This document shows positions 8,840 to 47,989 of a stretch of 64,000 nt of DNA, one piece after another. The position numbers were made by a program, and so were the translations under genes. Numbering within the stretch: the stretch's first letter is position 1; every line of letters begins with the position of its first letter. Under the pieces are notes generated by a model. That model was not told the DNA's origin. It saw only the letters and a program-made list of their open reading frames with translations, and searched no databases. This stretch comes from a virus: IMG/VR virus record IMGVR_UViG_3300045988_183727. The stretch is one strand, 5' to 3'.

Positions 8840-8869
8840 TTGACATTATTTTATGTTCGTGCTAATATG
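8840..8869 (+). promoter_or_regulatory. Sigma-A-type promoter of the conserved TTGACAttATTTTATGTTCGTG-TAATAT family
   Basis: TTGACA at 8840-8845, TGcTAATAT at 8861-8869. Nearly identical to the promoters at 17260 and 47961. Confidence 0.7.
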
Positions 8870-8890
8870 AAATCGAAGAAATAAGCCCTT

Positions 8891-11206
8891 TTGGGAGCTT
8901 TTAATGCCTGCTGTGAAAGGTCGTGTTTCCACATTAAACTAATACTGGCTGAAAAGAAACAGCTTGGCGATTTGATTGCCCAAGCTATTCCCGGTACAGC
9001 ACATTATGACCGTGGTGCAACCGTGAAAGGTGAATATGTAATCGTCTGTTCGCAAGGACATCTTCTTTCTCTGAAGGAGCCTGAGGACTATGATGTCGCG
9101 TTTGGAAAATGGGAGTTGTCTGCCTTGCCGATTTATTTTCCGAACTGGCAAACAAAGGTGAAAGAGTATAACGGGAGAGGCGTGAATCCCAACGAGCGCG
9201 TTTCGCGCATTGGGGAGCTTTTGAAGCAGTGTTCCTGTGTAATCCACGCAGGAGACCCTGATGAAGAGGGGCAGCTTCTTATTGACGAGCTGCTTCGCTG
9301 GCACGGTTATCGTGGACCCGTTTACCGTTTGGCGACGGGCGACACCTCTATCCCTGCGCTGCAGCGTGCGCTCAATAACCTCAAGGACAACCGTCTCTTT
9401 GAGAACATGGGGTGGTCTGCTTACGCACGGAGCGTTGCCGACCTTATGGTTGGTGTGAATATGAGCCGATATTATTCGCTGGTCAACAATGCTTCGCTGA
9501 CAGTTGGACGTGTGCAGTCTCCTACTCTTGGGCTTGTGGTCGAGCGTGATATGCTTATCGAAAACCACGTAAAAACTAAATACTATGAGGTCTCAGCGAA
9601 GACTTCTATTGAGGGTAAGGTCGTTGAGACGAAGTACAGGCCGAAGAAAGATGACCCGCATCTGACTGATGGGCTTATCTTGGATAGACCTTACGCGGAG
9701 AGCAAGTCTGTGATGATTTCCGGAAAACAGTTCTCAGGGGCTGCCGTTACAAAAAAGATTTCCAAAGAACAACCGCCTTTGCCGTTTGATATGCTGGAAT
9801 TGCAGGGCTACTGTTTGAAGAGTTTCGGCTACAAGCTGGACGACACCATGGAAATCACGCAGTCTTTACGCGATAACTACAACGCCATTACATATAACCG
9901 TACTCAGGTGCGATATCTCCCCGAAAACTACTTTGCGGAAGCTCCTGCCACCTCCCGTACTGTTATCGCAAACATAAACACGGTAGGAAAGGGAAATTTC
10001 AACCCTATTCTTGGTATGGACTTCAAGACGAAGGGGCGGTGCTTCGACGATTCTAAAATTGAAGCGCATTTTGGTATCATTCCTCAAAATGTGAGTCTCG
10101 ACCTCAACAAGATGACGGAGCGGGAACGAAACGTATATCTTGCCATTTGTAAGTATTATCTTATCCAGTTCTTTCCGCCCGCTGAGAAGGAAACAACAAA
10201 GCTGGTTGTCCCGCTGCCGGACGGCGCCACTTTAGAGGCGTCCAGCACTGGTGTGCTGAAACCCGGTTATCTCGTGATGATGCGCGAAGGTGTAGATACG
10301 CCCACAGCGTTGAGTATGATACCCGCCGGCAGTTACGGTGCTTTTGTTTCCGACGCTCAGGTCTTAGAGAAGGAAACAAATCCCCCTCCTCGTTACACAC
10401 AGTACACACTGGCGAAGGATATGAGCCGTATTGCCAAGTATGTTACCGACCCATTCATCAAGAGCACTCTGCTGAAGAAAGATGCCGACGTGGAAGAGAA
10501 TAACGGGGCTATCGGCACCAGCGCAACACGGGACCAGATAATCTCCGGTCTCATTTCAAGAGGGTTCTTGCAGGAAAAGGGGAAGTCCCTTATTTCCACT
10601 CCACTTGGACGCGAGTTGTATCGCATTCTCCCCGATTCCCTTCGTGGACCGGACCTCACCGCCTTGTGGTGGGTCATTCAAGAGGAGATACATGAGGGGA
10701 AGGCGACGCCGGAGAAGCTGGAACAAAACGTTCTGGCTATGCTCAAAGATTTCCTGCAGCAACCGCATCCTAAAGTGGACCCCAACATTGTCCCGACAAG
10801 GAAGGGATTCACGCCGATAGGAGTCTGTCCTCGCTGTGGTGGGAACATCATAGAGGGGAAAATGGGCTTTGGTTGTTCCAACTGGAAGAGTGGATGTAAG
10901 TTTACCATCTGGAAAAAGCCAAAACCGACTCTGTTCCAGCACATCACATTCACAGAGAAGGATGTCAAAAACTTTCTCGCTGGAAAGCCTGTCCATAAGA
11001 CGAAGCTGACCAAGAAGGACGGCGGTACATTTGCGGCAGACCTTGTGATGGATGACAGTCAGCGCAGTGATTGGGGCCCGAACTTTACGCTTCAGTTCAA
11101 CAGCACCAAACCCGCAGGAGCCTCCTCGCGCTCTGGTGGTGGTCGTTCCGGTAGTCGCAGTACGTCGCGTGGTTCTTCGCGGAGTCGGCGCTCTGGACGT
11201 CGGTGA
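8891..11206 (+). CDS. topB: DNA topoisomerase III (type IA) with a C-terminal zinc ribbon and an RS/RG-rich tail
   Basis: Toprim N-terminus (KLILAEKKQLG, DPDEEG), topoisomerase IA core, then CPRCGG...GCSNWKSGC and SRSGGGRSGSRSTSRGSSRSRRSGRR. The start is uncertain: the track uses TTG at 8891. Confidence 0.9.
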   Translation: MGAFNACCERSCFHIKLILAEKKQLGDLIAQAIPGTAHYDRGATVKGEYVIVCSQGHLLSLKEPEDYDVAFGKWELSALPIYFPNWQTKVKEYNGRGVNPNERVSRIGELLKQCSCVIHAGDPDEEGQLLIDELLRWHGYRGPVYRLATGDTSIPALQRALNNLKDNRLFENMGWSAYARSVADLMVGVNMSRYYSLVNNASLTVGRVQSPTLGLVVERDMLIENHVKTKYYEVSAKTSIEGKVVETKYRPKKDDPHLTDGLILDRPYAESKSVMISGKQFSGAAVTKKISKEQPPLPFDMLELQGYCLKSFGYKLDDTMEITQSLRDNYNAITYNRTQVRYLPENYFAEAPATSRTVIANINTVGKGNFNPILGMDFKTKGRCFDDSKIEAHFGIIPQNVSLDLNKMTERERNVYLAICKYYLIQFFPPAEKETTKLVVPLPDGATLEASSTGVLKPGYLVMMREGVDTPTALSMIPAGSYGAFVSDAQVLEKETNPPPRYTQYTLAKDMSRIAKYVTDPFIKSTLLKKDADVEENNGAIGTSATRDQIISGLISRGFLQEKGKSLISTPLGRELYRILPDSLRGPDLTALWWVIQEEIHEGKATPEKLEQNVLAMLKDFLQQPHPKVDPNIVPTRKGFTPIGVCPRCGGNIIEGKMGFGCSNWKSGCKFTIWKKPKPTLFQHITFTEKDVKNFLAGKPVHKTKLTKKDGGTFAADLVMDDSQRSDWGPNFTLQFNSTKPAGASSRSGGGRSGSRSTSRGSSRSRRSGRR

Positions 11207-11219
11207 TGGTGCATCATAG

Positions 11220-11249
11220 TTGACATTTTAACATAGTCTATGGTATAGT
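11220..11249 (+). promoter_or_regulatory. Sigma-A-type promoter upstream of the YdjM-like gene
   Basis: TTGACA at 11220-11225, and TGGTATAGT with TATAGT at 11244-11249. Confidence 0.6.
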
Positions 11250-11279
11250 ACAAGTGTTCTATTTAACAAAGATGTACCA

Positions 11280-11291
11280 GAACATTTGTTC
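11280..11291. promoter_or_regulatory. LexA (Cheo/SOS) box GAAC-N4-GTTC
   Basis: aGAACATTTGTTCa is a perfect Gram-positive SOS-box core, lying between the promoter and the YdjM-like start. Confidence 0.6.
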
Positions 11292-11384
11292 AAGATGCTT
11301 GTTATTTACCTGTGATTTCCGAGATAAATAACAAGAATCTTGTTATTGTGCTATACCCCGTTCAAAACATTAGGAGGTGAACCA

Positions 11385-11933
11385 TTGGACGGGCGAACCC
11401 ATACTTTTGCCGGATACACGGCAGGATTACTTCTTGTGCAGGCACAAATCTTCGGAGCATTTGGACTTCCGGCGCCGGACGGCATTCTTCCGTGTGTCGG
11501 AATGGTTGGACTGTCCATGGCGGGCTCCCTCGCGCCTGACATAGACCTTCCGCGTAGCAGAGCAGGACGACGCAATAGACCCGTGTCCGCTGCCGTAAAC
11601 GCTCTTTTTGGGCATAGGGGGATTACCCATGCGCCCTTCATTTGGGCGGCGCTGTACGCGGCTTTGAAGCTGCTTTTGGGTGCTGAATGGTTGACCTATA
11701 TCCTTGCGTTTGTTATTGGTGGAGCAACTCATATTTTGCTCGACCTTTTCAATAAAGCCGGCGTTCCTTTGCTTTGGCCGATATCCCATCGCTTCTGGAT
11801 ATTCGGTATAAGGACGGACAGTGCTGCTGGTCACGCATTTTCTTTTGTCTTGGCGTGTGTCGCAGTTCTTTGTACCATCAATTTTTTCTACGAAGCCGGC
11901 GACTACTTAAAGGAGGCGATTTGGTTTGTTTGA
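11385..11933 (+). CDS. YdjM-family membrane-bound metal-dependent hydrolase
   Basis: TTG start at 11385, 7 nt after AGGAGG. Multi-TM protein with DIDLPRS and GHRGITHAP motifs. Confidence 0.7.
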   Translation: MDGRTHTFAGYTAGLLLVQAQIFGAFGLPAPDGILPCVGMVGLSMAGSLAPDIDLPRSRAGRRNRPVSAAVNALFGHRGITHAPFIWAALYAALKLLLGAEWLTYILAFVIGGATHILLDLFNKAGVPLLWPISHRFWIFGIRTDSAAGHAFSFVLACVAVLCTINFFYEAGDYLKEAIWFV

Positions 11934-11976
11934 CGCTACAACAACAAAGTCTGAAAACGCACAATGGGGTGAGCGC

Positions 11977-12636
11977 ATGGCGACATATATTGCGCTGATG
12001 CGGTGGAACGGCTACTCTGTGCAGGAAATTGCTGATACCTTTGGCATTTCCCGGCAGCAGGTGTATCTGCATCTGCAGAAGATTCCTTTTCCTAATGATA
12101 AGGCCAAAAGGTATCCTCGTCCCGCACTGAATGAAGAGCAGGTGAGGGCTGTGGTCGGTTTTTTTGTCGCGAATAAGGACGCGCCCATATCCGCTGCTTC
12201 AGAGACAACGGGCATTCCTGTTGCGGATGTTGTGATGCTTTGCAACAATATCCGTGGCGCTCATTCGTGGTATTTCAGCGAGGGTTATCCTCTCATTGCG
12301 GATTATCTGAACAGGGAGGGAGTTACGCTTGATTATCTGGAACAGATGGCTGGCGTTCAGGGACTCGCACAGTATATTTTTTCCACATACCCCTACAAGG
12401 AGATGCCGAAGGCTCGTGCTGCTGCGGTAGCCGCAGTAATTGACGTTCCCGCAGACAAGCTGATGGAGGTGGCTGTTGCGTCCGGAAATATGGCCACAGG
12501 TGTGGCAACATCGGATGAAATGGCATTGGTCATCGGCTCAGTAACCGGACGCGAAGCGAACTCGCGGCTCTTTTTCCGTGGACGCCGTATCAAACCTTCT
12601 TTCTCTGCAACTGGAGGTGGTTCTTGTGGTGAATAA
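11977..12636 (+). CDS. Hypothetical HTH protein
   Basis: The ATG at 11977 is in frame with the TTG at 11926. The N-terminal YSVQEIADTFGISRQQVYLHL is helix-turn-helix-like. Confidence 0.6.
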   Translation: MATYIALMRWNGYSVQEIADTFGISRQQVYLHLQKIPFPNDKAKRYPRPALNEEQVRAVVGFFVANKDAPISAASETTGIPVADVVMLCNNIRGAHSWYFSEGYPLIADYLNREGVTLDYLEQMAGVQGLAQYIFSTYPYKEMPKARAAAVAAVIDVPADKLMEVAVASGNMATGVATSDEMALVIGSVTGREANSRLFFRGRRIKPSFSATGGGSCGE

Positions 12637-13159
12637 ATCTGGACCTGACCTCCAGAGCGATATCGTCGTCGATACTCGCGATTATCCTGAAGCTCTGCAG
12701 CGCCTCACGATGAAGGGCATCTTGATGGCCGGTGCCATTGTGGTTATCCTCATTGCAACGCTTTGCCTGCAGAAGTCCGAATTGAAGGCAATGCTTCCCT
12801 TTGCCGGCGTTATCCTCTTGCTGGCAGGATATGTTGTCTATTCTGCCCTACACTTGCGAACAGAATGGCAGAATGGGGACATCGTGTGTCATATTGCTTT
12901 GTGCCGCTCTGTGCGGTCTCGGTCATGGCCACGGGACAGCAAAGAGGTGGTTTTTGTAACAGGGGAAGACGAAGGTCAAGAGGCCCATGTGTTTAATCTT
13001 CCTGACCGCAAGAACAAAGACCTGTATCCCGGCTTTAAGTACACCATCTATGTTCGTGCAAGAGATAATACGCATCTCTTGGCCTACAAAGAAATCTATG
13101 TGCCTTCCGATGCGAAGGACACCGAAGAAGTCAAGTCGGAGCTTTCTTCAGAAAAGTGA
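12626..13159 (+). CDS. Hypothetical membrane protein
   Basis: GTG at 12626 lies 5 nt after GGAGGTGG and overlaps the upstream stop. An alternative ATG is at 12710. Two TM helices. Confidence 0.6.
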   Translation: MVNKSGPDLQSDIVVDTRDYPEALQRLTMKGILMAGAIVVILIATLCLQKSELKAMLPFAGVILLLAGYVVYSALHLRTEWQNGDIVCHIALCRSVRSRSWPRDSKEVVFVTGEDEGQEAHVFNLPDRKNKDLYPGFKYTIYVRARDNTHLLAYKEIYVPSDAKDTEEVKSELSSEK

Positions 13160-13188
13160 AAAAAGCCGGCCTACGGGCCGGTTTTTTT
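13160..13188 (+). terminator. Rho-independent terminator
   Basis: aaaagccggcc tac gggccgg followed by T7. A second hairpin at about 13196-13230 serves the convergent gene. Confidence 0.75.
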
Positions 13189-13240
13189 GCGTTAAGAAGA
13201 GGCCTTGCCTTGTGGCAAGACCTCTTTCGTGTTGTGAAAG

Positions 13241-13687
13241 TTAATTGAAAAAGAAGGGCCTTCCGATTTCTGCATCCTCCTGAGGTTCAGACTCTTCCGG
13301 AGTAAAGCCGTTTTCCGGCGTATTGGCCTCGTTCACAAGGCCATCATCGCTGTCCTCGTCTTCCGTGGCTTCCGCTGCAACAGGGGATACACCCCAGTTG
13401 AGAATAGCCTCATCCTCCTCGGACAGTGCAATACGCTGCCTTTCAGCGGTATCGCGGATTTTCTTGACCATTTTTTCGCGGAAGTTTTTCATGGCGGACT
13501 GGATGCGTGTCGCGGCCTGTTCATCTACAACGATAGCAGGCTTTTTACGGCTTTTTGCCGATACCGTAAAGGCGTTATCCTTTGCAGCGATATCTAACAT
13601 CGTATTGATGTCTGCGACTGCTTTCAGTCCGTCTGAGACCTGCTGGAGTGCCTGCTGCTGCTTGGAATCACTGATAATTGCGGGCAT
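13241..13687 (-). CDS. Hypothetical acidic protein (148 aa)
   Basis: ATG with RBS aaaggagag. Acidic C-terminus. Confidence 0.7.
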   Translation of the reverse strand: MPAIISDSKQQQALQQVSDGLKAVADINTMLDIAAKDNAFTVSAKSRKKPAIVVDEQAATRIQSAMKNFREKMVKKIRDTAERQRIALSEEDEAILNWGVSPVAAEATEDEDSDDGLVNEANTPENGFTPEESEPQEDAEIGRPFFFN

Positions 13688-13711
13688 GATTTATCTCTCC
13701 TTTTCTTTTTT

Positions 13712-14398
13712 TTAGTTAGCGGGTGAGGTATCTGTCTCAGTATCGGCGCCTTCAATGACCGCGCTCATATCTGCGAGGTAGTAAACATCCGCTGCCTTGT
13801 CGTAGTTGATGTGTGCGATAAAGCTGCCAAGGTCTTCGCCCGTAGCCTTATCACATACGCGGATTGTCAGCGTTTCATTGCCGTTATATCCATCCACAAG
13901 AATGGAGTCCTGCCACGCAACACCGAATTTGTTTACATCGCGGTAGGTCGCGTCAATTCCCAGCACATCGTCATACCAAGTAAAGGCTGCAATACTGTTG
14001 GTATCCATTGTGTAAAAATCTTGCCGCTTGACCGTTGCGTATTCTTCCGGCATAAAGTATAGGGGATATGTCGTACGCTCACACTTGATATAGAACGCCG
14101 CACCGTTGGGGTCGTTGCAGGTGGGGTTCAAGTAGATGGCGTTGACGCCGGCATCCTTATCGCCCATACCCAGCGTGACCTCATAGCCGGATTCCAGCGT
14201 ACAGCTCAACTTGATGTCGTTGCGGTACTTGCCATCCCCGATATATCCTTGGGAGTCCTCTTCACCGTCGGGGATGGGTTCGGGATTTTCGAGGTTGTAC
14301 TGAGGTTCGCCGGTGTCCTCATCTTTATCTTTCTTTCCACATCCCACAATGGTCAGAGCCATAAGCACGGCCAGAGTCAATGCGATGAACTTCTTCAT
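13712..14398 (-). CDS. Lipoprotein
   Basis: Signal peptide MKKFIALTLAVLMALTIVGC with a lipobox. RBS aaggagg. Confidence 0.8.
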   Translation of the reverse strand: MKKFIALTLAVLMALTIVGCGKKDKDEDTGEPQYNLENPEPIPDGEEDSQGYIGDGKYRNDIKLSCTLESGYEVTLGMGDKDAGVNAIYLNPTCNDPNGAAFYIKCERTTYPLYFMPEEYATVKRQDFYTMDTNSIAAFTWYDDVLGIDATYRDVNKFGVAWQDSILVDGYNGNETLTIRVCDKATGEDLGSFIAHINYDKAADVYYLADMSAVIEGADTETDTSPAN

Positions 14399-14421
14399 AC
14401 GGGATTCCTCCTTACTGATTT

Positions 14422-15915: not shown

Positions 15916-15937
15916 AGGGCATCATCTTCCTTTCTGT

Positions 15938-16393: not shown

Positions 16394-16411
16394 ACAACTC
16401 TCCCAATTCTA

Positions 16412-17132: not shown

Positions 17133-17259
17133 AAAATACCTCCGTTGGCAGGTTCCCGCCACAGCCACATTCCCTAAAGACCGTGGCGGGACTTGCTTTT
17201 CTACATTTTCTATATTACCATATTCGAACATAATGTCAAGCGAAAAGCACCATGTAGAC

Positions 17260-17288
17260 TTGACATTATTTTATATTCGTGTTATAGT
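17260..17288 (+). promoter_or_regulatory. Sigma-A-type promoter of the conserved family
   Basis: cTTGACATTATTTTATATTCGTGTTATAGT, about 40 nt upstream of the nuclease gene. Confidence 0.7.
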
Positions 17289-17330: not shown

Positions 17331-18122
17331 ATGGTAAAGAATAATAACAAGAAAAACAACGGCACGAATGCCTTGCGAGGGCTCCTCGCTTTCCTTGTTG
17401 CCCTTGCTGTGTTTCTCGGAGTAGAGCTCATTCCGCAGCTCACAGAGAACCTTGGCCCCGACAACCATCCGTCGTATACAGAAGCGTCTGACGTCTACGA
17501 GGAGAGTTATAAGAGCTGGTTTTCGTTAGATGACATTGTTCCGTTTGAAGGGGAGCCATATGTCGTTGTAAACGGTAATGTTCCTTTCTTTACAGAAGTT
17601 GATATGACCACAGAGCCGTTCGAATTGTTTTCCGAGTTGGATGACCTTGGACGCTGCGGGACTGCCTACGCAAATGTGTGCCAAGAGCTGATGCCTACGG
17701 AAGAACGAGGGTCTATCGGTTCCGTGAAGCCGTCAGGCTGGCACCTGAACAAATACGACTGCGTGGATGGCAAGTACCTCTACAATCGTTGTCATCTGCT
17801 GGGCTATCAGCTTACAGGCGAGAACGCCAATGTCAAGAACCTCATCACCGGAACTCGCTACCTCAATGTAACTGGTATGCTGCCGTTTGAGAACGAGATT
17901 GCTGATTATGTTCACGAGACAAACAACCACGTTCTGTATCGTGTGACTCCCGTTTTTGAAGGCGACAACCTTGTAGCGAACGGTGTCTTGATGGAAGCCC
18001 TTTCTGTGGAAGATGATACCATTGAGTTCTGTGTGTTTTGCTATAATGTGCAGCCCGGTGTCAAGATTGATTACGGCACCGGCCTCAACTGGGCGGACGC
18101 GGAATACTCCGCTGAAAACTAA
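17331..18122 (+). CDS. Membrane-anchored or secreted DNA/RNA non-specific endonuclease (EndA/NucA-like)
   Basis: N-terminal TM or signal segment. NRCHLLGYQLTGENANVKNLITGTRYLNV...MLPFENEIADYV matches the DNA-entry-nuclease family signature. Confidence 0.85.
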   Translation: MVKNNNKKNNGTNALRGLLAFLVALAVFLGVELIPQLTENLGPDNHPSYTEASDVYEESYKSWFSLDDIVPFEGEPYVVVNGNVPFFTEVDMTTEPFELFSELDDLGRCGTAYANVCQELMPTEERGSIGSVKPSGWHLNKYDCVDGKYLYNRCHLLGYQLTGENANVKNLITGTRYLNVTGMLPFENEIADYVHETNNHVLYRVTPVFEGDNLVANGVLMEALSVEDDTIEFCVFCYNVQPGVKIDYGTGLNWADAEYSAEN

Positions 18123-18149
18123 ATTAGAAAGAATAAAGGAGAAAGAACT

Positions 18150-19586
18150 ATGTTTGACCTGCTCTTTGGGAACAAGGCCGTTCTCGTCCCCGCAATTATC
18201 GTGATTGCGGTCCTCATCATCTGTATTTTGGGGTATATCAAGGCGCCGCCCGATATGGCGTATATCATCTCCGGTCTTCGCAAGAAGCCCAAAATCCTCA
18301 TTGGTCGTGCCGGCGTTCGCGTTCCGTTTCTGGAGCGCGTCGATAAGCTAATTGTCCGTCAGATTTCCGTGGACATCAAATCCGATGGCTACATTCCCAC
18401 ACTGGACTTCATCGGCGTTGATGTGGATGCCGTTGCCAAGGTCCGTGTCAGGACAGATGACGAGGGCATTAAGCTGGCTATGCGGAACTTCCTGAACATC
18501 ACTGATGCCCGTGGCTTTGAGCAGGCGATTTCGGACTCTCTGCAGGGAAACATGAGAGAGATTATCGGGACTATAACGCTCAAGGAAATCTGCAATGACC
18601 GTAAGAAATTCGGTGATGAAATCCAGTCAAAGGCGCAGGTTGACATGAATGCGTTGGGTATCGAGATTATCTCCTGTAATATCCAGCGCGTGACCGACGA
18701 GAAGGGCCTTATCAATGCTCTGGGTCAGGATAATATGAGTCAAATCCAGAAAAATGCTTCTATCGCCAAGGCCGAAGCGGAGCGCGATATCCAGATTGCT
18801 CAGGCGGAGGCGGCTCGTCAGGCGAACGAGGCTCAGGTCGCATCCGATACACAGATTTCTATTCGTAAGACCGAACTGGCCGTGAAGCAGGCCGAGCTGA
18901 AGGAAACCTCCGACATCAAGAAGGCTGCTGCCGATGCTGCCTATAAGATTGAGGAACAGAAGCAGCGCCGGAGCCTCGATATTGCATCTACCGATGCCGA
19001 CATTGCGAAGCGCGAGAAGGAAGCAGAACTGGCAGAGCGTGAAATCACGCTGCAGGAGCGTCGGTTGGATGCTGATATTCGCAAGAAGGCAGATGCCGAT
19101 AAGTACGCTGCCGAAAAGAAGGCCGAAGCAGAGCTGTACGCCCGCAAGCAGGAAGCCGAGGCCAAGCGCTTCGAGCAGGAGCAGATTGCCGAAGGTATCA
19201 AGGCCGTCGGTGCCGCAGAAGCCGAGGCTATCAAGGCCAAGGCTCTGGCCGAAGCGGAAGGTATCGACCGTAAGGCTGAGGCCATGAAAAAGTACGGTGA
19301 AGCCGCAGTGGTCGAGATGATTATGAACGCACTGCCCGAAATTGCCAAGAACGTGGCCGCGCCTCTCACTAATGTGGATTCCATCACCATGTACGGCGAG
19401 GGTAACAGTACGAAGCTGATTGAGGACATCGTTTCTTCTACCACTCAGGTTTCCAACGGTATGCTGAACGGTTTGGGTATCGACCTGCGGAGCCTGCTGG
19501 CCGGCTTTGTCGGAGGCAAGGTCGCAGTTCCCGCATCTGCTCCCAGTGTTGAGCCTACCGCCGTCACTGAGGGCGAAGCCGAGTAA
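18150..19586 (+). CDS. Flotillin (SPFH domain, FloT/YuaG-like)
   Basis: N-terminal hairpin helix, SPFH domain, and a long A/E/K-rich coiled coil (AEAERDIQIAQAEAARQANEAQ...). Confidence 0.9.
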   Translation: MFDLLFGNKAVLVPAIIVIAVLIICILGYIKAPPDMAYIISGLRKKPKILIGRAGVRVPFLERVDKLIVRQISVDIKSDGYIPTLDFIGVDVDAVAKVRVRTDDEGIKLAMRNFLNITDARGFEQAISDSLQGNMREIIGTITLKEICNDRKKFGDEIQSKAQVDMNALGIEIISCNIQRVTDEKGLINALGQDNMSQIQKNASIAKAEAERDIQIAQAEAARQANEAQVASDTQISIRKTELAVKQAELKETSDIKKAAADAAYKIEEQKQRRSLDIASTDADIAKREKEAELAEREITLQERRLDADIRKKADADKYAAEKKAEAELYARKQEAEAKRFEQEQIAEGIKAVGAAEAEAIKAKALAEAEGIDRKAEAMKKYGEAAVVEMIMNALPEIAKNVAAPLTNVDSITMYGEGNSTKLIEDIVSSTTQVSNGMLNGLGIDLRSLLAGFVGGKVAVPASAPSVEPTAVTEGEAE

Positions 19587-19629
19587 AAACAATTACCCCA
19601 CCGTAGGCACTCCCTGCGGCGGGGAATAC

Positions 19630-19717
19630 GGAGAGGTGGCCGAGTGGTTGAAGGCACCGGTCTTGAAAACCGGCGATGCGAAAGCATCCGTGGGTTTGAA
19701 TCCCACTCTCTCCGCCA
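19630..19717 (+). tRNA. tRNA-Ser (anticodon TGA), CCA encoded
   Basis: Acceptor GGAGAGG/TCTCTCC, D-arm GTGGCCGAGTGG, anticodon loop CTTGAAA, long variable arm, T-loop GGTTTGAATCC. Confidence 0.9.
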
Positions 19718-19728
19718 AAAAAAAACAA

Positions 19729-19859
19729 GTACGGACGGTATAACCGGAATTAACGCCTGTGGAGATGCATGGTCGTCGCGGAAGCAGGAATACTCTGTTG
19801 GCTGGCAATCACGTGAGAGGTGACGACCAGCACCTTGGGGGAACTGAATACCTGTGCTG
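19729..19859 (+). ncRNA. Omega-RNA-like scaffold, copy A (structured RNA family, 5 copies)
   Basis: GTACGGACGGTATAACCGGAATTAACGCCTGTGGAGATGCATGG...GCTGG-CAA-TCAC-GTGAGAG-GTGA-CGA-CCAGC...GGGGGAAC plus the linker TGAATACCTGTGCTGG. The central hairpin covaries among copies. Confidence 0.7.
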
Positions 19860-20053
19860 GGTATACACCACCCAGAAATAGCAGGGTACTATACCACAAG
19901 ATGCCGCACGTTGAATTTGAGTGGCGGTATACACCACCCAGAAAAAAACAGGGTACTATACCATCTCATTGCACACTGGCATATACCCGTTATCGTAAAG
20001 GATATGTCACGGTTAGGGGTATACACCACCCCGAAATAACAGGGTTGTATACC
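19860..20053 (+). repeat. Hairpin-repeat mini-array A (3 repeats; CRISPR-like layout)
   Basis: Repeats at 19860-19895, 19926-19962 and 20018-20053 (GGTATACACCACCCnGAAATAACAGGGTTGTATACC). The spacers are 30 and 55 nt, and the latter contains a degenerate repeat. Confidence 0.7.
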
Positions 20054-20098
20054 TCGGTATGACGATTATATCCGAAGGAAGCTCATTATCCAAGGAAA

Positions 20099-20117
20099 GT
20101 GTGCAATGATTGCACAC
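20099..20117. repeat. Perfect palindrome GTGTGCAATGATTGCACAC preceding scaffold B (the same palindrome is at 50304-50322)
   Basis: Identical 19-nt palindrome upstream of scaffolds B and C. Confidence 0.8.
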
Positions 20118-20125
20118 TTAAAGAC

Positions 20126-20250
20126 GTACGGATGGTACAGCCGGAATTTACGCCTGTGGAGACGAACTCCGTCGTAGAAGCAGGAACTTCCCATGGCTGA
20201 ACACCGCGTGAGAGGCGGTACAGCACCGAGGTGAGAGCACCTTGGGGAAC
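20126..20250 (+). ncRNA. Omega-RNA-like scaffold, copy B (divergent, no hairpin array)
   Basis: GTACGGATGGTACAGCCGGAATTTACGCCTGTGGAGACG...GCT-GAACA-CCGC-GTGAGAG-GCGG-TAC-AGC...TTGGGGAAC. It ends 30 nt before the ATG at 20281. Confidence 0.65.
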
Positions 20251-29788: not shown

Positions 29789-29855
29789 GATGTTTTCTCC
29801 TTTCTCCCAGCCTGTGATAAGGACTTACGGGAAACCAAAATAAAATGTATATATA

Positions 29856-29992
29856 GAAAAAGACAATCACTGCCCGAAAAGGGAAGTGATTGTCTGAATT
29901 TATGATGTGACTTGAAAAACGGAGATAAAACTCCTTATAAAAATATCTTCGTAATTATACTATTATACTACCACGTTTCGCTATTTTGTCAA
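29856..29992 (-). promoter_or_regulatory. Promoter-leader-terminator cassette 1
   Basis: Minus strand: TTGACA (29992-29987), 16 nt, TAGTAT (29970-29965), then TATAAT-like (29959-29954), GGAG-n6-CTCC GTTTTT, and the terminator AGACAATCACTTCCC/GGGCAGTGATTGTCT + T5 (29895-29856). Confidence 0.75.
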
Positions 29993-36197: not shown

Positions 36198-36235
36198 GCG
36201 TTTACTCCTTTCGTTTTTACTTGTTCTGAATATAT

Positions 36236-36368
36236 AAAAAGACAGTCGTTCCCAAATGAGAACAACTGTCTTGAATATGATGATGTGACTGAAAACGGAG
36301 ATAAATCTCCTTATAAAAATATCTTCGTAATTATACTACTATACTACCACAATTCTTTATAATGTCAA
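36236..36368 (-). promoter_or_regulatory. Promoter-leader-terminator cassette 2
   Basis: TTGACA (36368-36363), 16 nt, TAGTAT (36346-36341), TATAAT-like (36335-30), GGAGATTTATCTCC GTTTTC, and the terminator AAGACAGTTGTTCTC/GGGAACGACTGTCTT + T5 (36272-36236). Confidence 0.75.
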
Positions 36369-36380
36369 CGGAAACGGTAC

Positions 36381-36413
36381 AAAAAAAGAAGCCCCCGAAA
36401 GAGCTTCTTTTTA
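36381..36413. terminator. Bidirectional terminator ending the upstream (-) operon
   Basis: A7 gaagccc ccgaaa gagcttc T5. Confidence 0.65.
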
Positions 36414-40159: not shown

Positions 40160-40222
40160 ATTTTTCTCCTTTCTCCCAGCCTGTGTTAAGGTCTTATGGG
40201 AACAAAAATGTAGTGAATATAT

Positions 40223-40355
40223 AAAAAGACAGTCGTTCTCAAAAGAGAACAACTGTCTTGAATGTGATGATGTGACTGAAAACGGAGACAAAGCTCCTTA
40301 TAAAAATATCTTCGTAATTATACTACTATACTACCACATTTCCTTATAATGTCAA
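40223..40355 (-). promoter_or_regulatory. Promoter-leader-terminator cassette 3
   Basis: TTGACA (40355-40350), 16 nt, TAGTAT (40333-28), TATAAT-like, GGAGCTTTGTCTCC GTTTTC, and the terminator AAGACAGTTGTTCTC/GAGAACGACTGTCTT + T5 (40259-40223). The post-terminator 5'UTR is shared with cassette 1. Confidence 0.75.
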
Positions 40356-40367
40356 CGGTTTCGACGC

Positions 40368-41372: not shown

Positions 41373-41388
41373 TTTTACATCTCCTTTC

Positions 41389-42229: not shown

Positions 42230-42437
42230 AGATTCTTGTCTCCTTTCCTTCAGAATTGGTTACACACGACGGAATGCCGAAAAAAGACAGAACCGCTTTA
42301 AGCGGCTCTGTCTCCATGCAGTCGATATGACACTGTTTGTTTTCGTAGGGTGCCTCGACAAATTCTTCGCCAACCTCAATGGGTTCGTGGCAAATGCAGC
42401 ATTCGCCGGCGTAACGAATTTCCTTTTTTGCTTTCAC
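42222..42437 (-). CDS. Small Cys-containing protein (71 aa), candidate cognate antitoxin by position only
   Basis: GTG start after aaaggag. Overlaps the MazF-like start by 8 nt. Confidence 0.5.
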   Translation of the reverse strand: MKAKKEIRYAGECCICHEPIEVGEEFVEAPYENKQCHIDCMETEPLKAVLSFFGIPSCVTNSEGKETRIYG

Positions 42438-42458
42438 AATGAATTTACTCCTTTCTTT

Positions 42459-42662
42459 TCAAAGTTGCCGAGACAGTGTTACGGCTGCCTGCTGGCGTCG
42501 TCTTTCGCAGTTTCTTCGCTGCACTTCGATAGCTTCGCGAGCCTCCGCAATACACTGCTTCGCACGCCTATCCTGTTCAGAAGAGAAAGATGCGTAGCGC
42601 TCAGAGTAGACGGAATCCATACGCTCGGCTCTCTCAATTAACTCATACAGCGGTGTAGACAT
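42459..42662 (-). CDS. Small hypothetical protein (67 aa)
   Basis: ATG with RBS gaggaggag. Confidence 0.55.
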   Translation of the reverse strand: MSTPLYELIERAERMDSVYSERYASFSSEQDRRAKQCIAEAREAIEVQRRNCERRRQQAAVTLSRQL

Positions 42663-42678
42663 AGCTTCTCCTCCTCGT

Positions 42679-42951
42679 TTATTGAATGTTCATGCCTACG
42701 GCGCGAGGACCTTCTTTGGACCAAGTTTCCTTGAGCCAGTGATAGGTGATTGTGCTATCTTCGGGACTCTTGTCTGGGTAGCAGGGAAGGTATGCTGCGG
42801 AGTACAAGTCTCTGCACTGACTGAAGTACACATGATTCCAGTCAGCCCACACATCACCAAGAGAACGGATAGCTCGCTTGAACGACCGAAAGCTCTGTGG
42901 CGTGTGAACTACGATGGCATTTGCTCCGTTCCACTTTCCATTCCACATCAT
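42679..42951 (-). CDS. Hypothetical protein (90 aa)
   Basis: ATG overlapping the upstream stop. Confidence 0.55.
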   Translation of the reverse strand: MMWNGKWNGANAIVVHTPQSFRSFKRAIRSLGDVWADWNHVYFSQCRDLYSAAYLPCYPDKSPEDSTITYHWLKETWSKEGPRAVGMNIQ

Positions 42952-43217
42952 TGCACTTCACCTCCCTGATACGTCGGGCGGCTGCGTCTGTTACGGAACG
43001 GAGGCATCACCGGTGCGGTGTAGCTGGTCAGCTCACCCGTCATTTTGACAGGCACACACTGGAGCAATCCGCGCTGTTTTCGATACTGGTGAGCCAAGTT
43101 GTTGCGAGCCTGTTTCTCAGAAACCGCCATAGTCGTCCCGCCCCACTTATTTGTGGTAATGTCGTCATAGACACGAACGGGTCCGAGATAGCTGAAAACC
43201 ATTTTTGCCTGTGCCAT
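42948..43217 (-). CDS. Hypothetical protein (89 aa)
   Basis: ATG follows aagaaaggagaaaacaca. It is the first gene after cassette 4. Confidence 0.6.
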   Translation of the reverse strand: MAQAKMVFSYLGPVRVYDDITTNKWGGTTMAVSEKQARNNLAHQYRKQRGLLQCVPVKMTGELTSYTAPVMPPFRNRRSRPTYQGGEVQ

Positions 43218-43262
43218 TGTGTTTTCTCCTTTCTTATTGTGTTGTAATGTAAAAAAATATAT

Positions 43263-43394
43263 AAAAAGACAGCTATCCCTGTCTTGGGATAACTGTCTTG
43301 AATACTTGGTGTGACTGGAAGCGGAGATAAGTCTCCTTATAAAAATATCTTCGTAATTATACTATTATACTACCACAATTATTTATAATGTCAA
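43263..43394 (-). promoter_or_regulatory. Promoter-leader-terminator cassette 4
   Basis: TTGACA (43394-43389), 16 nt, TAGTAT (43372-67), TATAAT-like, GGAGACTTATCTCC, and the terminator AAGACAGTTATCCC/GGGATAGCTGTCTT + T5 (43299-43263). Confidence 0.75.
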
Positions 43395-43404
43395 CAATGG
43401 CAGA

Positions 43405-43439
43405 GAAAAAAGAGGCGGCTTTCGCCTGCCTCTTTTTTT
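43405..43439. terminator. Bidirectional terminator ending the RecG operon
   Basis: A6 gaggcgg ctttcg cctgcctc T7. Confidence 0.7.
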
Positions 43440-44610
43440 ACCTTATTTCCTCGGAGTATTGTGCCATCCAGCAGTCGCAAAGGGCTTCCGCTACGACCTC
43501 ACTTCTATCGTTATCGTCAGAAATCATCAGGATTGAAGAAAGGGCTGACCGCATACCTTCATCGAGCGTAAACTCCCTCTCGTTTCCACTTTTATCTGGG
43601 ACATTTGTTCGAGCAAGCAGCGTCGAATATTTCGTATAATCGGGGGAAATGAAATAGTCCACAGCCGTGTCGAGTCCAATACTCAGCATCATAAGATTGC
43701 CGGTCGTTCCCATTGGTTCTTTCTTTCCGGACTTCTTCTCCGGTCTCATAAGAGTTCCGTTCTTGTCAAAGAATATTGCCCTATCTGACTTTTCAAATGT
43801 GTCTACAGGAACGCTAAAGCATCTGATTGCCATGTTCTTAAAAGGAGCACTGGCGTCTTCGCCGAACAGTGAGGAAGCATTACAGCAGTCATTTTCCATC
43901 TTCTCGTTAAGCCGCTTTATATAAAGCTCCTGAAAATCAATGGGAGCACCTGCGCTGTCCGCGTATACGTAGTTTTCTGGCTTTTTGCCGTCTGCCGTTT
44001 CCCTTACCATGTACTGCTCGTACTGCTTGCACATTTCTTTAATCTTAACTTGTATCCGCAAGGAATCGGAAAACGGAACTGCTGAGATTTGGGAGAAAAG
44101 GGAGGAGTAGTTGTGAGGGAGGTGGATGGGCGCACACTCATCTCCGAATAAGACTTTTTCGCAGGACTTGTCAAGGAAAAAGTATGAGGTTTTGTAAAGA
44201 CCTTCAACAGACGCATAAAACCCTTCAGGCAGCCGTCGCGTCTGCTTGCCGTCTGCTGGAGGCGAAATGCGTAACTCAAACGGGCCCACAGAGGTAAGCG
44301 CACCGTCCTCAGGCTCCTTGAGGCGCGACATTTTAGTTGCGTCCATGCCGATTTCTGCGCCAATTTGCTTCACATTCCATTCTCCATAGACACGTGGCAT
44401 TTTGGTAATGGCAAACAGCTCTTCGTACACTCTCGCGGAAACAAGCCTGCGTACCAAAGTGAGCTCATCGCTGAATTCGGCATATATTCCGAGCATTTCC
44501 TTGTAATTCAATTTTTCCGACTTCTCGGCGGAAGAGAACCGCGTATTGAGTTTTGTCGCCCATTTATTGCAGTCGATATATGCGTTGACTGCACTATCCT
44601 TTTTTCTCAT
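43438..44610 (-). CDS. Hypothetical protein (390 aa) with a possible HTH
   Basis: ATG with translational coupling to the upstream gene. VKQIGAEIGMDATKMSRL is HTH-like. The stretch is visibly AT-richer. Confidence 0.65.
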   Translation of the reverse strand: MRKKDSAVNAYIDCNKWATKLNTRFSSAEKSEKLNYKEMLGIYAEFSDELTLVRRLVSARVYEELFAITKMPRVYGEWNVKQIGAEIGMDATKMSRLKEPEDGALTSVGPFELRISPPADGKQTRRLPEGFYASVEGLYKTSYFFLDKSCEKVLFGDECAPIHLPHNYSSLFSQISAVPFSDSLRIQVKIKEMCKQYEQYMVRETADGKKPENYVYADSAGAPIDFQELYIKRLNEKMENDCCNASSLFGEDASAPFKNMAIRCFSVPVDTFEKSDRAIFFDKNGTLMRPEKKSGKKEPMGTTGNLMMLSIGLDTAVDYFISPDYTKYSTLLARTNVPDKSGNEREFTLDEGMRSALSSILMISDDNDRSEVVAEALCDCWMAQYSEEIR

Positions 44611-45575
44611 TTGTTTTCCTCCTTAAAGTGTTCAAGTCTTTCGGAAAACTTTTGCAGCGCTTTTCTAAACTCAATTTTGCAGGTGGTTGACATGAAATAA
44701 TAGGCGGAAACAATATCTTCTGTCGTAGAGTTTTTCGCATAAAGTCGCATTGTGCTTGGCATCCCCATGAGCCAGTGTAAAGAGACGCCAAAGGCAGCCG
44801 CTATATGCGGCAGAATTCTTTCGTTGCTTGTGGAGCAGGAGGGTCTCACCAACATGATATTCGCCAACTCGTGAATGACATCCTTTTGTTTATCATCTAA
44901 TTCAAAATTGCCTTTTCCGGACTGAATCAATTCATCCAAATCGAGAATATCCTGTCGCTTAAATGAACATCTGTGGGAAAAAACGTACTGTACTCGCGCA
45001 GAAGGGCGCAGCAATAAGCTGCGTTTTTTATCATCCCAGAATTGATGTATCCACATCGTATCAATCATGCCGAGAGCGGACTCTCTTATGCATCCGTCTC
45101 TTATCGTTTCTGGAAAGCTATCTACAAGATTATAGACTTCTTGAACATCTGGCGGTAGGCTGCTGAAAGCTGGAAAGTTTTTATCTCCGAATCGAATCAT
45201 TTCCTCGTAAGATATGTCCAACTCGGCAAGAATCCGAAAAACGATTTGCCAGTTAAATCCCTGCCAGCCTATAAATCGCTGTGTTTCTCCGTTTGTAACG
45301 GGAGTTTTATCAAATAAAAGGGCTGGCAGCTTTTCTTCTGGACAATTAAGCTGTTCGGCTAACCGCAGCTTTTTCATTTCTGCCCTGTATGGCGTGGTGT
45401 CTGTGATAATGTTGTTTACTCTTGCCATGTTGCCTGCATCCTCCGCAATTCTTAATTTGCGGAGGAGCAGGACTATAGAGGTATAGACAGTTGTTGAGAC
45501 GTTTTCTCCGTACCTTATATCGTCTCCAGCTCGTGCCGGCTTTGTAGGATTTGTTCTTTTATAAATAGCACTCAT
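44607..45575 (-). CDS. Hypothetical protein (322 aa) with XRE-like HTH segments
   Basis: ILPHIAAAFGVSLHWLMG and FRILAELDISYEEMIRFG are HTH-like. Overlaps the recG stop. Confidence 0.65.
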   Translation of the reverse strand: MSAIYKRTNPTKPARAGDDIRYGENVSTTVYTSIVLLLRKLRIAEDAGNMARVNNIITDTTPYRAEMKKLRLAEQLNCPEEKLPALLFDKTPVTNGETQRFIGWQGFNWQIVFRILAELDISYEEMIRFGDKNFPAFSSLPPDVQEVYNLVDSFPETIRDGCIRESALGMIDTMWIHQFWDDKKRSLLLRPSARVQYVFSHRCSFKRQDILDLDELIQSGKGNFELDDKQKDVIHELANIMLVRPSCSTSNERILPHIAAAFGVSLHWLMGMPSTMRLYAKNSTTEDIVSAYYFMSTTCKIEFRKALQKFSERLEHFKEENK

Positions 45576-47647
45576 TTTCTTGATGCCTCCTTTGCGGTAT
45601 TGTCGGTCTCCTGACCTCCCGCGATTATGGAATCGACCATTTTGCAGGAACCTTTTCCTCTGTTCAAAAGTGTCTTTGCGTCCTCCTTTGCCTGTTCGTA
45701 CTCAGCGGGGTATGCCATCATAAGGGTCATATATCGGTTCCATCCGGATTGTTCTGTGCCGAGGAAATCTCCGGCACCTCTAATGCGGAGGTCCGCCTCT
45801 GCAATTTCAAACCCGTTATTGGTCTGTACCATGGCGTTCAGTCTCTCCATCGCAGCCGGCGTGGGCGACGCGCCTGCTTCCAGCACACAATAGGACTGTA
45901 CGCTGCTCCGCCCTACACGCCCTCTCAACTGGTGCAGACTGGAAAGCCCGAAACGGTCCGCGTTTACAATGACCATCATTGTCGCGGTAGGGACATTTAC
46001 GCCAACCTCCACAACGGTTGTACTGACAAGCACATCTACTTGACCATCCTTGAATCGCGAGAGAATGTCCTCCGTTTCTGTCTTTCCCATCTTGCCTGTT
46101 ACTGTTTCGATGCGGACGCCATACGGCTCCAGAACAGAACGGTATTCTGCGCTGACCTCCTCGACAGACTGTACGCCTTCCAGTTTTTCGCTTCTATCAA
46201 TAAGCGGACAGACAACATAGGTTTGATACCCCTTTTGTTTCTGCAGCAGAATGAAGCGAAAGATTTTTTCTTTACTTGTGGCAATACCGGTAATAACTGG
46301 AAGACGTCCGTCCGGCATCGTTTTAATGGTGTGGAGCTGCACGGTATCCCCATAAATTACCTGAGCCAGACTGCGGGGGATGGGGGTGGCAGACATAGTA
46401 ATAGAATGAACACCGCCTGAAGCCTTTTCGATGAGCGCTGTACGCTGGTCAACGCCAAACTTGTGTTCCTCATCCGTTACGGTTAAGGCGAGATTTTTAT
46501 ACTCCACATCTTCTCCAATGATGGACTGTGTTCCAACAATGAGCTGTGCCTTGCCTTCCTTGATGGCGGCCAAGGCTTTTTTCTTTTCGCTCGTCTTCAA
46601 ATCGCTGCCAAGCCAAACAACACTTACGTCAAACGGTTCCGCCAGAGCAGAGAGGTCCTCGTAGTGCTGACGCGCCAACACCAGCGTTGGAGCCATCACC
46701 GCTGCCTGATACCCATTCTCAGCCATGGTCATCATAAGGCAAAAGGCAACGATGCTCTTTCCACAACCGACATCACCCTGCACAAGCGCGTTGATGCGAT
46801 GCCCGTCTGCTGCAAATTGAGTCATGCTCTCAATCGCGTCCATCTGGTCTTTTGTGAGAGAATAGGGCAGGGACTTCTTAATCTTTTCAATCCAGCCGTT
46901 TGTTTTGACGGAGAATTGGCTACCTTTAGAAATCTTTCGTGCGGCCCATTCGTTAGCCATAGCAAAATATACGAGGTCTTCCTGAAGGAGTCGGGATTGA
47001 CCATCCTTAATATCCTGCTCGGAAACGGGGAAGTGCAGCTTCTTGAGTGAAGTCCAAAGGCTTGAAAGACCTTTTTTGTCGAGGAAATCATTGGGAAGCG
47101 TTTCAATAAGTCCGATAGTTCTGTCGGAAGCCTCCTGAATCTTTTCTCTCAGGTAGGCATCGCTCACGCCTCCGATTTGAGCGTACACAGGACGAATGCC
47201 CGGTGCCTGCCCATAGGCAGGCTCGAAAATCTCCGGTGCCGTCATGGTGTAGTTGTTGTATTTCTCGCTGTATCCGACCTTTCCAGCCACATAAACCTCC
47301 TGCCCTGTGCAAGTGGAAATCTTGCGGAAGAGGTAGTTTTGCCGGAACCATGTAATAACGAGTTTTTCTCCGCTTGGAAGCACCGTGCAGTGTGCGATAA
47401 TCATAGGGACATGAGAGGAAGTCTGCACATAAGAACCCTTATAGCGCAGTTCTTGGCCGAAGGACTTCACTTCGTCTACACGTACAAGACAAGCCTGCTC
47501 CGCACCATCTATGAGATGCGTTGCAAGCTGCCGGTAGTCCTTATAGCTTTTTGGGATATAACGCAGAAGGTCTTCTGCTGAGTGGATACCTTTTTTCTCG
47601 AAACGCTTTTCCTTTTGTGCGTTTACTCCAATGACGGATAGCTTCAT
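45572..47647 (-). CDS. recG: ATP-dependent DNA helicase RecG
   Basis: Wedge domain plus SF2 helicase: GDVGCGKS (Walker A), VTDEEHKFGV (DEEH), QLRGRVGR. The internal ATG at 47647 follows ggaggtgagaacatat. Confidence 0.9.
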   Translation of the reverse strand: MKLSVIGVNAQKEKRFEKKGIHSAEDLLRYIPKSYKDYRQLATHLIDGAEQACLVRVDEVKSFGQELRYKGSYVQTSSHVPMIIAHCTVLPSGEKLVITWFRQNYLFRKISTCTGQEVYVAGKVGYSEKYNNYTMTAPEIFEPAYGQAPGIRPVYAQIGGVSDAYLREKIQEASDRTIGLIETLPNDFLDKKGLSSLWTSLKKLHFPVSEQDIKDGQSRLLQEDLVYFAMANEWAARKISKGSQFSVKTNGWIEKIKKSLPYSLTKDQMDAIESMTQFAADGHRINALVQGDVGCGKSIVAFCLMMTMAENGYQAAVMAPTLVLARQHYEDLSALAEPFDVSVVWLGSDLKTSEKKKALAAIKEGKAQLIVGTQSIIGEDVEYKNLALTVTDEEHKFGVDQRTALIEKASGGVHSITMSATPIPRSLAQVIYGDTVQLHTIKTMPDGRLPVITGIATSKEKIFRFILLQKQKGYQTYVVCPLIDRSEKLEGVQSVEEVSAEYRSVLEPYGVRIETVTGKMGKTETEDILSRFKDGQVDVLVSTTVVEVGVNVPTATMMVIVNADRFGLSSLHQLRGRVGRSSVQSYCVLEAGASPTPAAMERLNAMVQTNNGFEIAEADLRIRGAGDFLGTEQSGWNRYMTLMMAYPAEYEQAKEDAKTLLNRGKGSCKMVDSIIAGGQETDNTAKEASRK

Positions 47648-47770
47648 ATATGTTCTCACCTCCGTGTGGTGGGAAAATGTTAGGGTGTCGGGGTGCTTTT
47701 CGTGAACTACTCGGCAATAAATCACCGAGGATTCTTGCTTACTTCTTATAAAGAGGGCTTACACACCCTT

Positions 47771-47800
47771 ATTATAAACACGAACATAAAATTTTGTCAA
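47771..47800 (-). promoter_or_regulatory. Promoter of the recG operon (conserved family)
   Basis: The minus strand reads cTTGACAAAATTTTATGTTCGTGTTTATAAT. Confidence 0.7.
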
Positions 47801-47960
47801 GTGTGTTAGAGAGAAAATTTACTGGATGTCAACCTTTTTTCTTTTGCATATTCGTTATTATTGCCAACTATTTTTCCGTAAAATACAGCTTGCTTTAGTT
47901 TGCGCGGCACGCTTTGCGGCGTATAAACTCGCGGTATAGCTTTTTTTTCTGATAATTAGA

Positions 47961-47989
47961 CTTGACATTTTTATATGTTCGTGTTAGTA
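47961..47989 (+). promoter_or_regulatory. Promoter of the conserved family driving the leader and tRNA cluster
   Basis: cTTGACATTTTTATATGTTCGTGTTAGTAT. Divergent from the recG promoter. Confidence 0.7.

Follow-up and report, generated by a model that had tools for sequence, protein, structure and literature searches.

Promoters sharing a conserved spacer across a large temperate element of human-gut spore-formers, and a possible operator overlapping them

SPBRE, a short motif of the Bacillus subtilis prophage SPbeta, was noticed by sequence inspection decades ahead of its protein, and is bound by the master repressor MrpR (YopR) (PMC10516654; PMC4191935). Here we describe a family of promoters that share their spacer sequence, which we call class A, in a 64,000-nucleotide (nt) stretch of DNA from the IMG/VR record IMGVR_UViG_3300045988_183727 (hereafter the window), part of a large mobile element that also carries a second promoter class, class B. 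Set beside SPBRE by description and not by sequence, class A resembles it in several respects: both belong to a large temperate Firmicute element with a large serine recombinase and a sporulation-related target gene, and both consist of a short motif at the promoter regions of ~9–10 dispersed operons. The two systems differ in that no MrpR-like (tyrosine-recombinase-fold) protein was found here, and in that the motif lies in fixed register in the interval between the -35 and the extended -10 element.

The operators and stoperators of Cluster A mycobacteriophages are asymmetric and are recognized by a monomeric, L5-type repressor (PMC9283540). Like them, the class A sites are numerous, asymmetric and without a dyad, some lie at promoters, and their orientation is tied to transcription; the L5-type sites show that a true operator need not be palindromic. 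L5 stoperators, however, also occur inside transcription units and far from promoters, whereas here 91 of 114 copies of a motif 10-mer stand in promoter register and the 3–4 box-only copies lie beside class A promoters. In the phage-plasmid P1, the kilA-repL operon is under the control of C1. KorA and KorB of the IncP-1 plasmids RK2/RP4 likewise govern a global repressor regulon of a large plasmid (PMC2665229, PMC4889941). Class A would resemble the KorA and C1 regulons in combining strong replication, maintenance or transfer promoters with an overlapping operator and in including a replication initiator (here a RepL-like pair); it differs in that KorA operators are palindromic, that the hosts of KorA and P1 are Gram-negative, and that no protein binding class A was found here.

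Early promoters of T4, T5 and SPO1 are alike beyond their hexamers, a likeness explained by promoter strength and polymerase modification. They share with class A an extended -10, an AT-rich spacer or upstream region and reading by host polymerase, but the element described here is temperate and integrative. In T4-type phages, the PeSL are promoter-terminator cassettes; class B is similarly a repeated promoter with a stem-loop among small-gene arrays, whereas class A promoters lack a terminator and share no leader sequence. By analogy with these systems, the conserved spacer of the near-identical class A promoters is most likely the mark of a shared control site, and such a pattern has been seen before in other large phages and plasmids.

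Class A is an element-specific promoter family that keeps strict register with both hexamers and is distinct from class B. Querying the window with the 14-mer ATTTTATGTTCGTG and allowing up to 2 mismatches returned 5 matches (8848+, 17268+, 47779-, 47970+ and 58539+), against a mean of 0.36 in 100 dinucleotide shuffles of the window, none of which had as many as 5. The matches at 8848+, 17268+, 47779- and 47970+ occupy an identical register within TTGACA-17/18-TAnnnT promoters, and the match at 58539+ sits in the open reading frame (ORF) of the serine recombinase and looks like a chance occurrence. With 5 matches where 0.36 are expected, and four of them in register, the five-locus promoter family with a shared spacer that had been put forward in the original prediction is real.

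The four main promoters serve topB, a nuclease-flotillin-tRNA-Ser operon, a tRNA-Glu/Thr/Thr/Gly cluster and the recG operon. At topB (8838–8868, +), AC precedes TTGACA (8840–8845), followed by the spacer TTATTTTATGTTCGTGC and TAATAT (8863–8868); at the nuclease operon (17258–17288, +), AC and TTGACA (17260–17265) are followed by TTATTTTATATTCGTGT and TATAGT. The tRNA promoter (47960–47990, +) is composed of AC, TTGACA (47962–47967), TTTTTATATGTTCGTGT and TAGTAT and has a leader of ~310 nt, while that of recG (47771–47802, -) is composed of AC, TTGACA (47800–47795), AAATTTTATGTTCGTGTT and TATAAT (47776–47771). Spacers are 17, 17, 17 and 18 nt long in this order. The -35 hexamer is TTGACA at all 6 positions in these four promoters and in two relatives, 8589(-) and 17239(-), and a third relative, 58283(+), has TTGTCA. 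An extended -10 TG at -15/-14, corresponding to the Gram-positive -16 region, is present in all class A members; in the 18-nt recG spacer it lies one base more distant from the -10 hexamer.

The relative at 8589(-) is a loose class A member (8561–8591, -; TTGACAaaattatgtaatcgtgGTAGAGT) made up of AC, TTGACA, aaattatgtaaTCGTGg and TAGAGT; it is divergent from the topB promoter and drives a gene for a 188-amino-acid (aa) protein (7767–8333). The other two extend the list of the original prediction. The promoter at 17239(-) (TTGACAttATGTTCGaatatggTAATAT; 17212–17239, -) is the divergent partner of the nuclease promoter, back-to-back with 17260(+) at a distance of 21 nt; it has a 16-nt spacer with ATGTTCG shifted 5 nt nearer to the -35, and drives a 77-aa membrane protein and a DUF5684 gene. 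The one at 58283(+) (ACTTGTCATTTTTTTATGTgggttgTATAAT; 58281–58311, +) is a degenerate copy 5' of the serine recombinase, with ACTTGTCA, TTTTTTTATGTgggttg and TATAAT. Of the positions originally given, 8840(+), 17260(+) and 47800(-) stand, while 47961 and 8592 are corrected to 47962(+) and 8589(-).

The orientation and position of these predicted promoters suit their downstream genes, which begin with a ribosome-binding site (RBS) and start codon or are tRNAs. Gene calls and orientation also agree with the earlier assignment of topB, the nuclease-flotillin genes, the tRNA cluster and the recG operon as the downstream units. Class A leaders are unlike one another, and no terminator-like hairpin was seen in those within the window, so class A does lack the terminators of the cassette promoters, as had been proposed, and their leader as well.

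Those cassette promoters make up class B, exemplified by 43367–43394 (-), which reads TTGACA, 16 nt, TAGTAT; others lie at 40355(-), 36368(-), 29992(-) and, loosely, 53719(+). The fetched DNA holds at least 24 distinct class B promoter sequences, and each large contig has 10 copies or more. All of 16 class A and 23 class B sequences carry T-15 and G-14, and Y-17 G-16 T-15 G-14 is common to both classes; the CGTG end of the "spacer" is therefore the extended -10 element of this element's promoters. Within the 16 distinct class A sequences, A-37, C-36, T-26, T-23 and C-17 are invariant and A-22 is present in 15, figures that are inflated by ascertainment bias because this set was partly collected by pattern; six members found by synteny alone match the consensus at ~75% over -29 to -17. 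What sets class A apart is thus A-37 C-36 together with a T-rich block (T-26, T-23, A-22, T-18, C-17). Class B has no AC before the -35, and its spacer centre carries 0.15–0.55 bits at -23 to -21.

The two classes also differ downstream of the promoter. Class B has a conserved leader of ~130 nt with two hairpin/T-run terminators, neither of which is found in class A, and its copies are 80% identical over ~150 nt, that is, duplicated cassettes. Class A heads genes of DNA metabolism, replication, tRNA and surface functions, and class B heads small-gene arrays (YopX, MazF, DUF1064); no structural or lysis genes tied to either class were seen in the DNA examined, and the suggested comparison with early and late classes gained no support. 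Two promoter classes therefore exist, one with AC and a T-rich block and one with a variable spacer centre and a two-terminator leader. The idea that the spacer itself is conserved needs qualifying: it is constrained, but its 3' YGTG (CGTG) is an extended -10 that the other class has too, and it is not invariant, as AAATTTTATACACATG and the tRNA promoter show.

Class B cassettes occupy 29840–29992, 36230–36389, 40217–40356 and 43257–43415 (all -) and, loosely, 53719–53900 (+). Each runs from an upstream terminator through TTGACA-16-TAGTAT, with a tandem -10-like TAGTATAgtAGTATAAT, to a conserved leader, in which a small hairpin with its T-run is succeeded by a long one, also with a T-run, whose stem pairing is kept despite differing sequences; an RBS and the gene come next. 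In sequence, the cassette resembles either a small RNA gene or a leader for antitermination or attenuation. With the two-terminator leader in class B and the conserved block in class A, each class has its own candidate control device.

We compared the promoters across 3–5 lineages whose genes share 70–85% nucleotide identity and whose copies of the 322-aa protein of the recG operon are as little as 52–58% identical. Orthologous class A promoters form islands of conservation in diverged or unalignable intergenic DNA. In nine orthologous pairs the -35 is unchanged and 10–17 of 17 spacer positions are identical (mean ~84%), while the 40-nt flanks are ~55–60% identical in gapped alignment or cannot be aligned. 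The recG promoter is almost constant, with 31 of ~33 aligned columns invariant in five lineages; the block from ACTTGACA to TATAAT is identical in 4 of the 5 and has 2 changes in the fifth, between unalignable flanks. The nuclease promoter 17260(+) is an island in 4 lineages, with 14–16 of 17 spacer positions kept, and 17239(-) is also kept across lineages, spacer included.

Other promoters show where the spacer can change. Five lineages have the same -35, T-23 A-22, TCGTGTTAGTAT and leader start CGTGGACAGGGCAAGG at the tRNA promoter, and -25 to -19 varies. The topB orthologue of a diverged lineage, which reads AAATTTTATACACATG, keeps the -35, AAATTTTAT and the TG but has lost GTTCG. A more distant nuclease homologue (L120, 68% identity) lies in a different context that lacks class A promoters, and it yielded no footprint. 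Together, these comparisons suggest that class A is under purifying selection, although some of the kept positions may be polymerase contacts.

Does this likeness merely record how the promoters arose? Paralogous flanks are at the identity level of shuffled controls, against 81–88% identity in the core, and the four copies are unrelated outside ~-38 to -7. Because the core alone is alike, segmental duplication is not its source, and these flanks and the conservation islands at orthologous promoters together exclude a recent duplication reaching past the promoters, one half of the outcome that the original prediction had named as refuting it. A subtler version, in which short promoter modules were duplicated or gene-converted and the likeness of the spacers has no function, strikes us as improbable. 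Exchange between copies is hinted at by a shared lineage-specific state: topB, the nuclease and the RepL-like promoter all carry TTATTTT in the lineage of the window, and TTTTTTT (nuclease, RepL-like) or AAATTTT (topB) in a diverged lineage. A relic half-copy, TTGACATTATTcctaatat, at 8631, and the plainly duplicated class B cassettes are further signs of copying. The likeness nevertheless ends only a few bases beyond the promoter in either direction, and paralogue-specific variants persist (AAA at recG in five lineages; TTTT and a variable stretch in the tRNA promoter), which argues against ongoing homogenization. Moreover, the spacer is kept where adjacent intergenic DNA is unalignable, and a small sample points to slower substitution in the spacer.

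Scanning IMG/VR with a pattern, and all fetched loci with a weight matrix, revealed at least 7 class A loci per element. The class A loci are the four window promoters, a lipoprotein gene (L011 3667-) and a RepL-like pair (L012 2360-; Pfam RepL/HTH_36), both outside the window, and the degenerate copies 5' of the serine recombinase and at 8589(-). A 22-mer pattern run against 185,579 species genomes of GTDB gave 39 matches, in unrelated taxa and never more than one per contig; none is one of the element's own sites, and by our arithmetic ~35 are expected by chance. Because these matches are single and at chance number, multi-copy use of the motif is specific to the element. The host chromosomal flanks (L107, L108) offered no consensus promoters for comparison.

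Copies outside promoters are few. Apart from the 91 of 114 TAYRTTCGTG 10-mers in promoter register, the remaining ones look like chance matches in coding sequence, and the 3–4 box-only copies of ACTTGACAAwwT all stand beside class A promoters. ACTTGACAA boxes without a -10 occur in tandem, 34 nt apart, 5' of the recG promoter in other lineages (L229 1336, 1370, 1404). An inverted ACTTGACATTATTTTT box 10–25 nt 3' of the lipoprotein promoter (L011 3616, L183 13450) might act as an antisense promoter facing it or as an auxiliary site for binding.

The 3' half of the spacer recalls a host site. The Firmicute LexA consensus is CGAAC-N4-GTTCG, and TATGTTCG, its right half, has 7 matches in the window where 1.5 are expected, so that the promoters might be SOS-inducible through a host LexA (Cheo) box. 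We give this almost no credence: TTwTTTTATGTTCG agrees with the consensus at 8 of 14 positions, none of them in the CGAAC arm, and many members carry ATTCG, AATCG or ACTCG. A LexA box was rejected, as its left arm is absent.

We tentatively favour, at somewhat less than an even chance, the reading that the motif is an asymmetric operator overlapping strong sigma-A promoters. Class A promoters would be strong promoters for host sigma-A, given their perfect -35, extended -10 (TCGTGn) and good -10, and the operator would be the class-specific region from -37 to ~-17, AC TTGACA WWW TTtTAT rtTC. A repressor encoded by the element would occupy the binding site of RNA polymerase and thereby silence the class A operons jointly, for example in the integrated state. 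We infer, then, that some protein besides RNA polymerase reads the motif and that the operons share their regulation. Four considerations lead us to this preference: firstly, class A retains positions of its own that class B manages without, although both must be served by the same polymerase; secondly, the entire recG spacer is frozen; thirdly, a temperate element must silence promoters of consensus strength; fourthly, class B carries a different control device. Dispersed operators on strong promoters are, moreover, how temperate integrative elements are known to solve this, as SPBRE/MrpR, the L5-type operators and KorA illustrate.

A number of observations weigh against an operator. The motif has no dyad symmetry and, as the 10-mer count shows, almost no free-standing copies; the spacer positions that are kept best are those next to the hexamers, a region contacted by RNA polymerase itself, and the central positions -27, -24, -20 and -19 vary. 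The topB orthologue without GTTCG still has a good-looking promoter, the T-rich block is of low complexity, and the class A set was collected in part by pattern. No regulator was identified, the sole clear helix-turn-helix (HTH) protein of the window (11926–12636) having its own, different promoter, and Pfam and PDB searches lent no support to DNA binding by the 322-aa and 390-aa proteins of the recG operon. The one candidate dyad within -37 to -7, ACAT...ATGT, disappears in sequences with A at -20 and is unconvincing.

Much of this would be expected of an intrinsic "super-promoter" with no dedicated factor, in which host RNA polymerase reads an extended -35, a T-rich rigid or curved spacer and TCGTGn, and whose copies descend from one ancestral promoter and are kept for high constitutive strength. 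The -35 is perfect except at 58283(+), TG stands at -15/-14 throughout, and YGTG recurs in class B and is thus a general promoter feature of the element; strict register, the lack of a dyad, the near absence of free-standing copies and the variable spacer centre of the tRNA promoter fit as well, and the same 22-mer is a single-copy promoter with a -10 in unrelated bacteria. This account, the main rival, which we consider possible but less likely, leaves unexplained why class A never departs from AC at -37/-36, T-26 and T-23 (and has A-22 in 15 of 16), positions that class B, read by the same polymerase, lacks or lets vary. Conservation of all 18 recG spacer bases across lineages with ~55% protein identity exceeds what known effects of the spacer on strength would require, and unregulated promoters of consensus strength would be costly for an integrated element.

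A class-specific spacer could also be needed by an element-specific sigma factor or a sigma-appropriating activator, in keeping with the temporal classes suggested in the original prediction. The T4 MotA box and the SPO1 gp28 and gp33/34 promoters are analogues. This we regard as very improbable, since the hexamers are the canonical housekeeping consensus, for which no alternative sigma factor is needed. A tblastn search with sigma regions 2–4 found no element-encoded sigma factor in ~1.6 Mb of fetched element DNA, yielding only the host sigF/G-like gene at the integration site and one weak, spurious match in non-coding frames, and Pfam sigma domains are absent from the window save for a sub-threshold region-4-like HTH in 11926–12636.

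The region 43438–45575 had been thought to encode HTH proteins, which could not be confirmed: no significant HTH was detected, Pfam gave no match, the best PDB match had E = 0.29, and the AlphaFold2 model, with a predicted local distance difference test (pLDDT) score of 56.5, was too poor, so that no fold search was made from it. Pfam and PDB searches with 11926–12636, 43438–44610 and 44607–45575 returned no significant regulator match. The 322-aa protein (44607–45575, -) belongs to an orphan family with 3 further 90% clusters among 5.8 billion proteins, all in recG context. The 77-aa gene beside the nuclease promoter was considered as a regulator and rejected as a small membrane protein.

A bolder form of the operator reading, which we think unlikely, is that -37 to -17 is the asymmetric operator of an element-encoded, unrecognizable master regulator, with the 322-aa and 390-aa proteins read from the invariant recG promoter as candidates, joining replication, topology and repair, tRNA and surface cargo in one regulon. 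Such a regulon would belong to a prevalent, >130-kb gut element that would exist by turns as a circle and as an insert within the gene for the forespore sigma factor in spore-forming Clostridia. If the motif is an operator, it would define the core regulon of a large, undescribed mobile element that is very common in human-gut spore-formers, and provide a 30-bp bait for the master regulator; if it serves strength only, class A is a well-documented but ordinary promoter family. As compact near-consensus parts, class A promoters may serve expression in gut Clostridia.

The predicted transcription units behind the four promoters are as follows. That of 8840(+) is topB, a type IA topoisomerase (8891–11206, +; Topoisom_bac 1.1e-76, Toprim). 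The unit of 17260(+) (17331–19717, +) comprises an NS-type nuclease (17331–18122), a flotillin/SPFH protein (18150–19586) and tRNA-Ser (19630), and that of 47962(+) (48300–48863, +) four tRNA genes (48300–48840) and an intrinsic terminator (48840–48863). From 47800(-) are read recG (start at 47652) and then the 322-aa and 390-aa proteins, which have no assigned function (43438–47652, -).

Several smaller features accompany these promoters. The half-copy TTGACATTATTcctaatat (8631–8650, +), which is class A-like with ~10 nt of the spacer deleted, lies between the divergent promoters 8589(-) and 8840(+) and is likely a defunct remnant. The conserved N-terminus of TopB (IKLILAEK; 8891–8960) is not preceded by an ATG, GTG or TTG start in its own frame; a 12-codon upstream ORF, MPAVKGRVSTLN (8905–8943), with a good RBS and in another frame, stops exactly at the TopB N-terminus, an arrangement that points to re-initiation by coupling or to a start codon outside the usual set. 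Strong promoters of a third kind are represented at 11220–11249 (+), 5' of a ydjM-HTH operon; the spacer there contains a small perfect palindrome, CATAGtCTATG, through which the HTH protein 11926–12636 may regulate its own operon; a diverged lineage has another spacer at the orthologous site. The tRNA-promoter leader (47991–48299) extends ~310 nt to the first tRNA, and its 5' end, CGTGGACAGGGCAAGG, is the stretch that is invariant in five lineages. It has no Rfam match and no convincing ORF and may be an unknown RNA; on the window as a whole, Rfam reports tRNAs only.

The element is very common in the human gut: one window protein occurs in 2,266 blocks of a contig collection and three others in 577–1,146. 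Its contigs reach 378 kb, with versions of 130–192 kb in IMG/VR, and among deposited phages and plasmids the only match is to the tRNA-Ser, with no close relatives. Its genes are in part phage-like (YopX, DUF1064, YqaJ, a RecD2-like helicase, SSB) and in part plasmid-like (RepL-like initiators, topB, MazF), with a T-Q-ester adhesin, TnpB and an IscB-like protein as further cargo.

A large serine recombinase (58360–59937) provides the integration route. Some contigs carry, at the point matching ~60034 of the window, a sigF/G-type sigma gene reduced to an N-terminal fragment of 98 aa (MRGKVEICG...FSTYGVPM), and others a 161–164-aa C-terminal part (regions 3–4) after the recombinase, with differing host genes beyond. 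The window and three other contigs represent the joined (attP) form, with the junction near 60031–60041, within 59937–60095; the corresponding loci elsewhere are L107/L108 12668–12964 and L221–L226 ~5674–6168. Judging from these junctions, the element integrates into a sigF/G-like sporulation sigma gene, and is therefore temperate. No forespore-sigma gene split by a >130-kb element was found in the literature searched.

The adhesin is a giant surface protein of 1,587 aa (37–4800, +) with repeated T-Q ester-bond and SpaA-type domains, and reaches 2,216 aa in another lineage (L011 3874–10524), an unusual cargo for an element recorded in IMG/VR as a virus. The TnpB (OrfB_IS605) gene and the IscB-like RRXRR protein lie at 49044–50288 and 55660–57144. 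A repeat of 100–250 nt occurs five times (19717–19895, 20096–20227, 50265–50509, 51803–51978 and 53250–53481), one copy directly after tRNA-Ser and one at the end of tnpB, and may be related to omega-RNA or to transposon ends.

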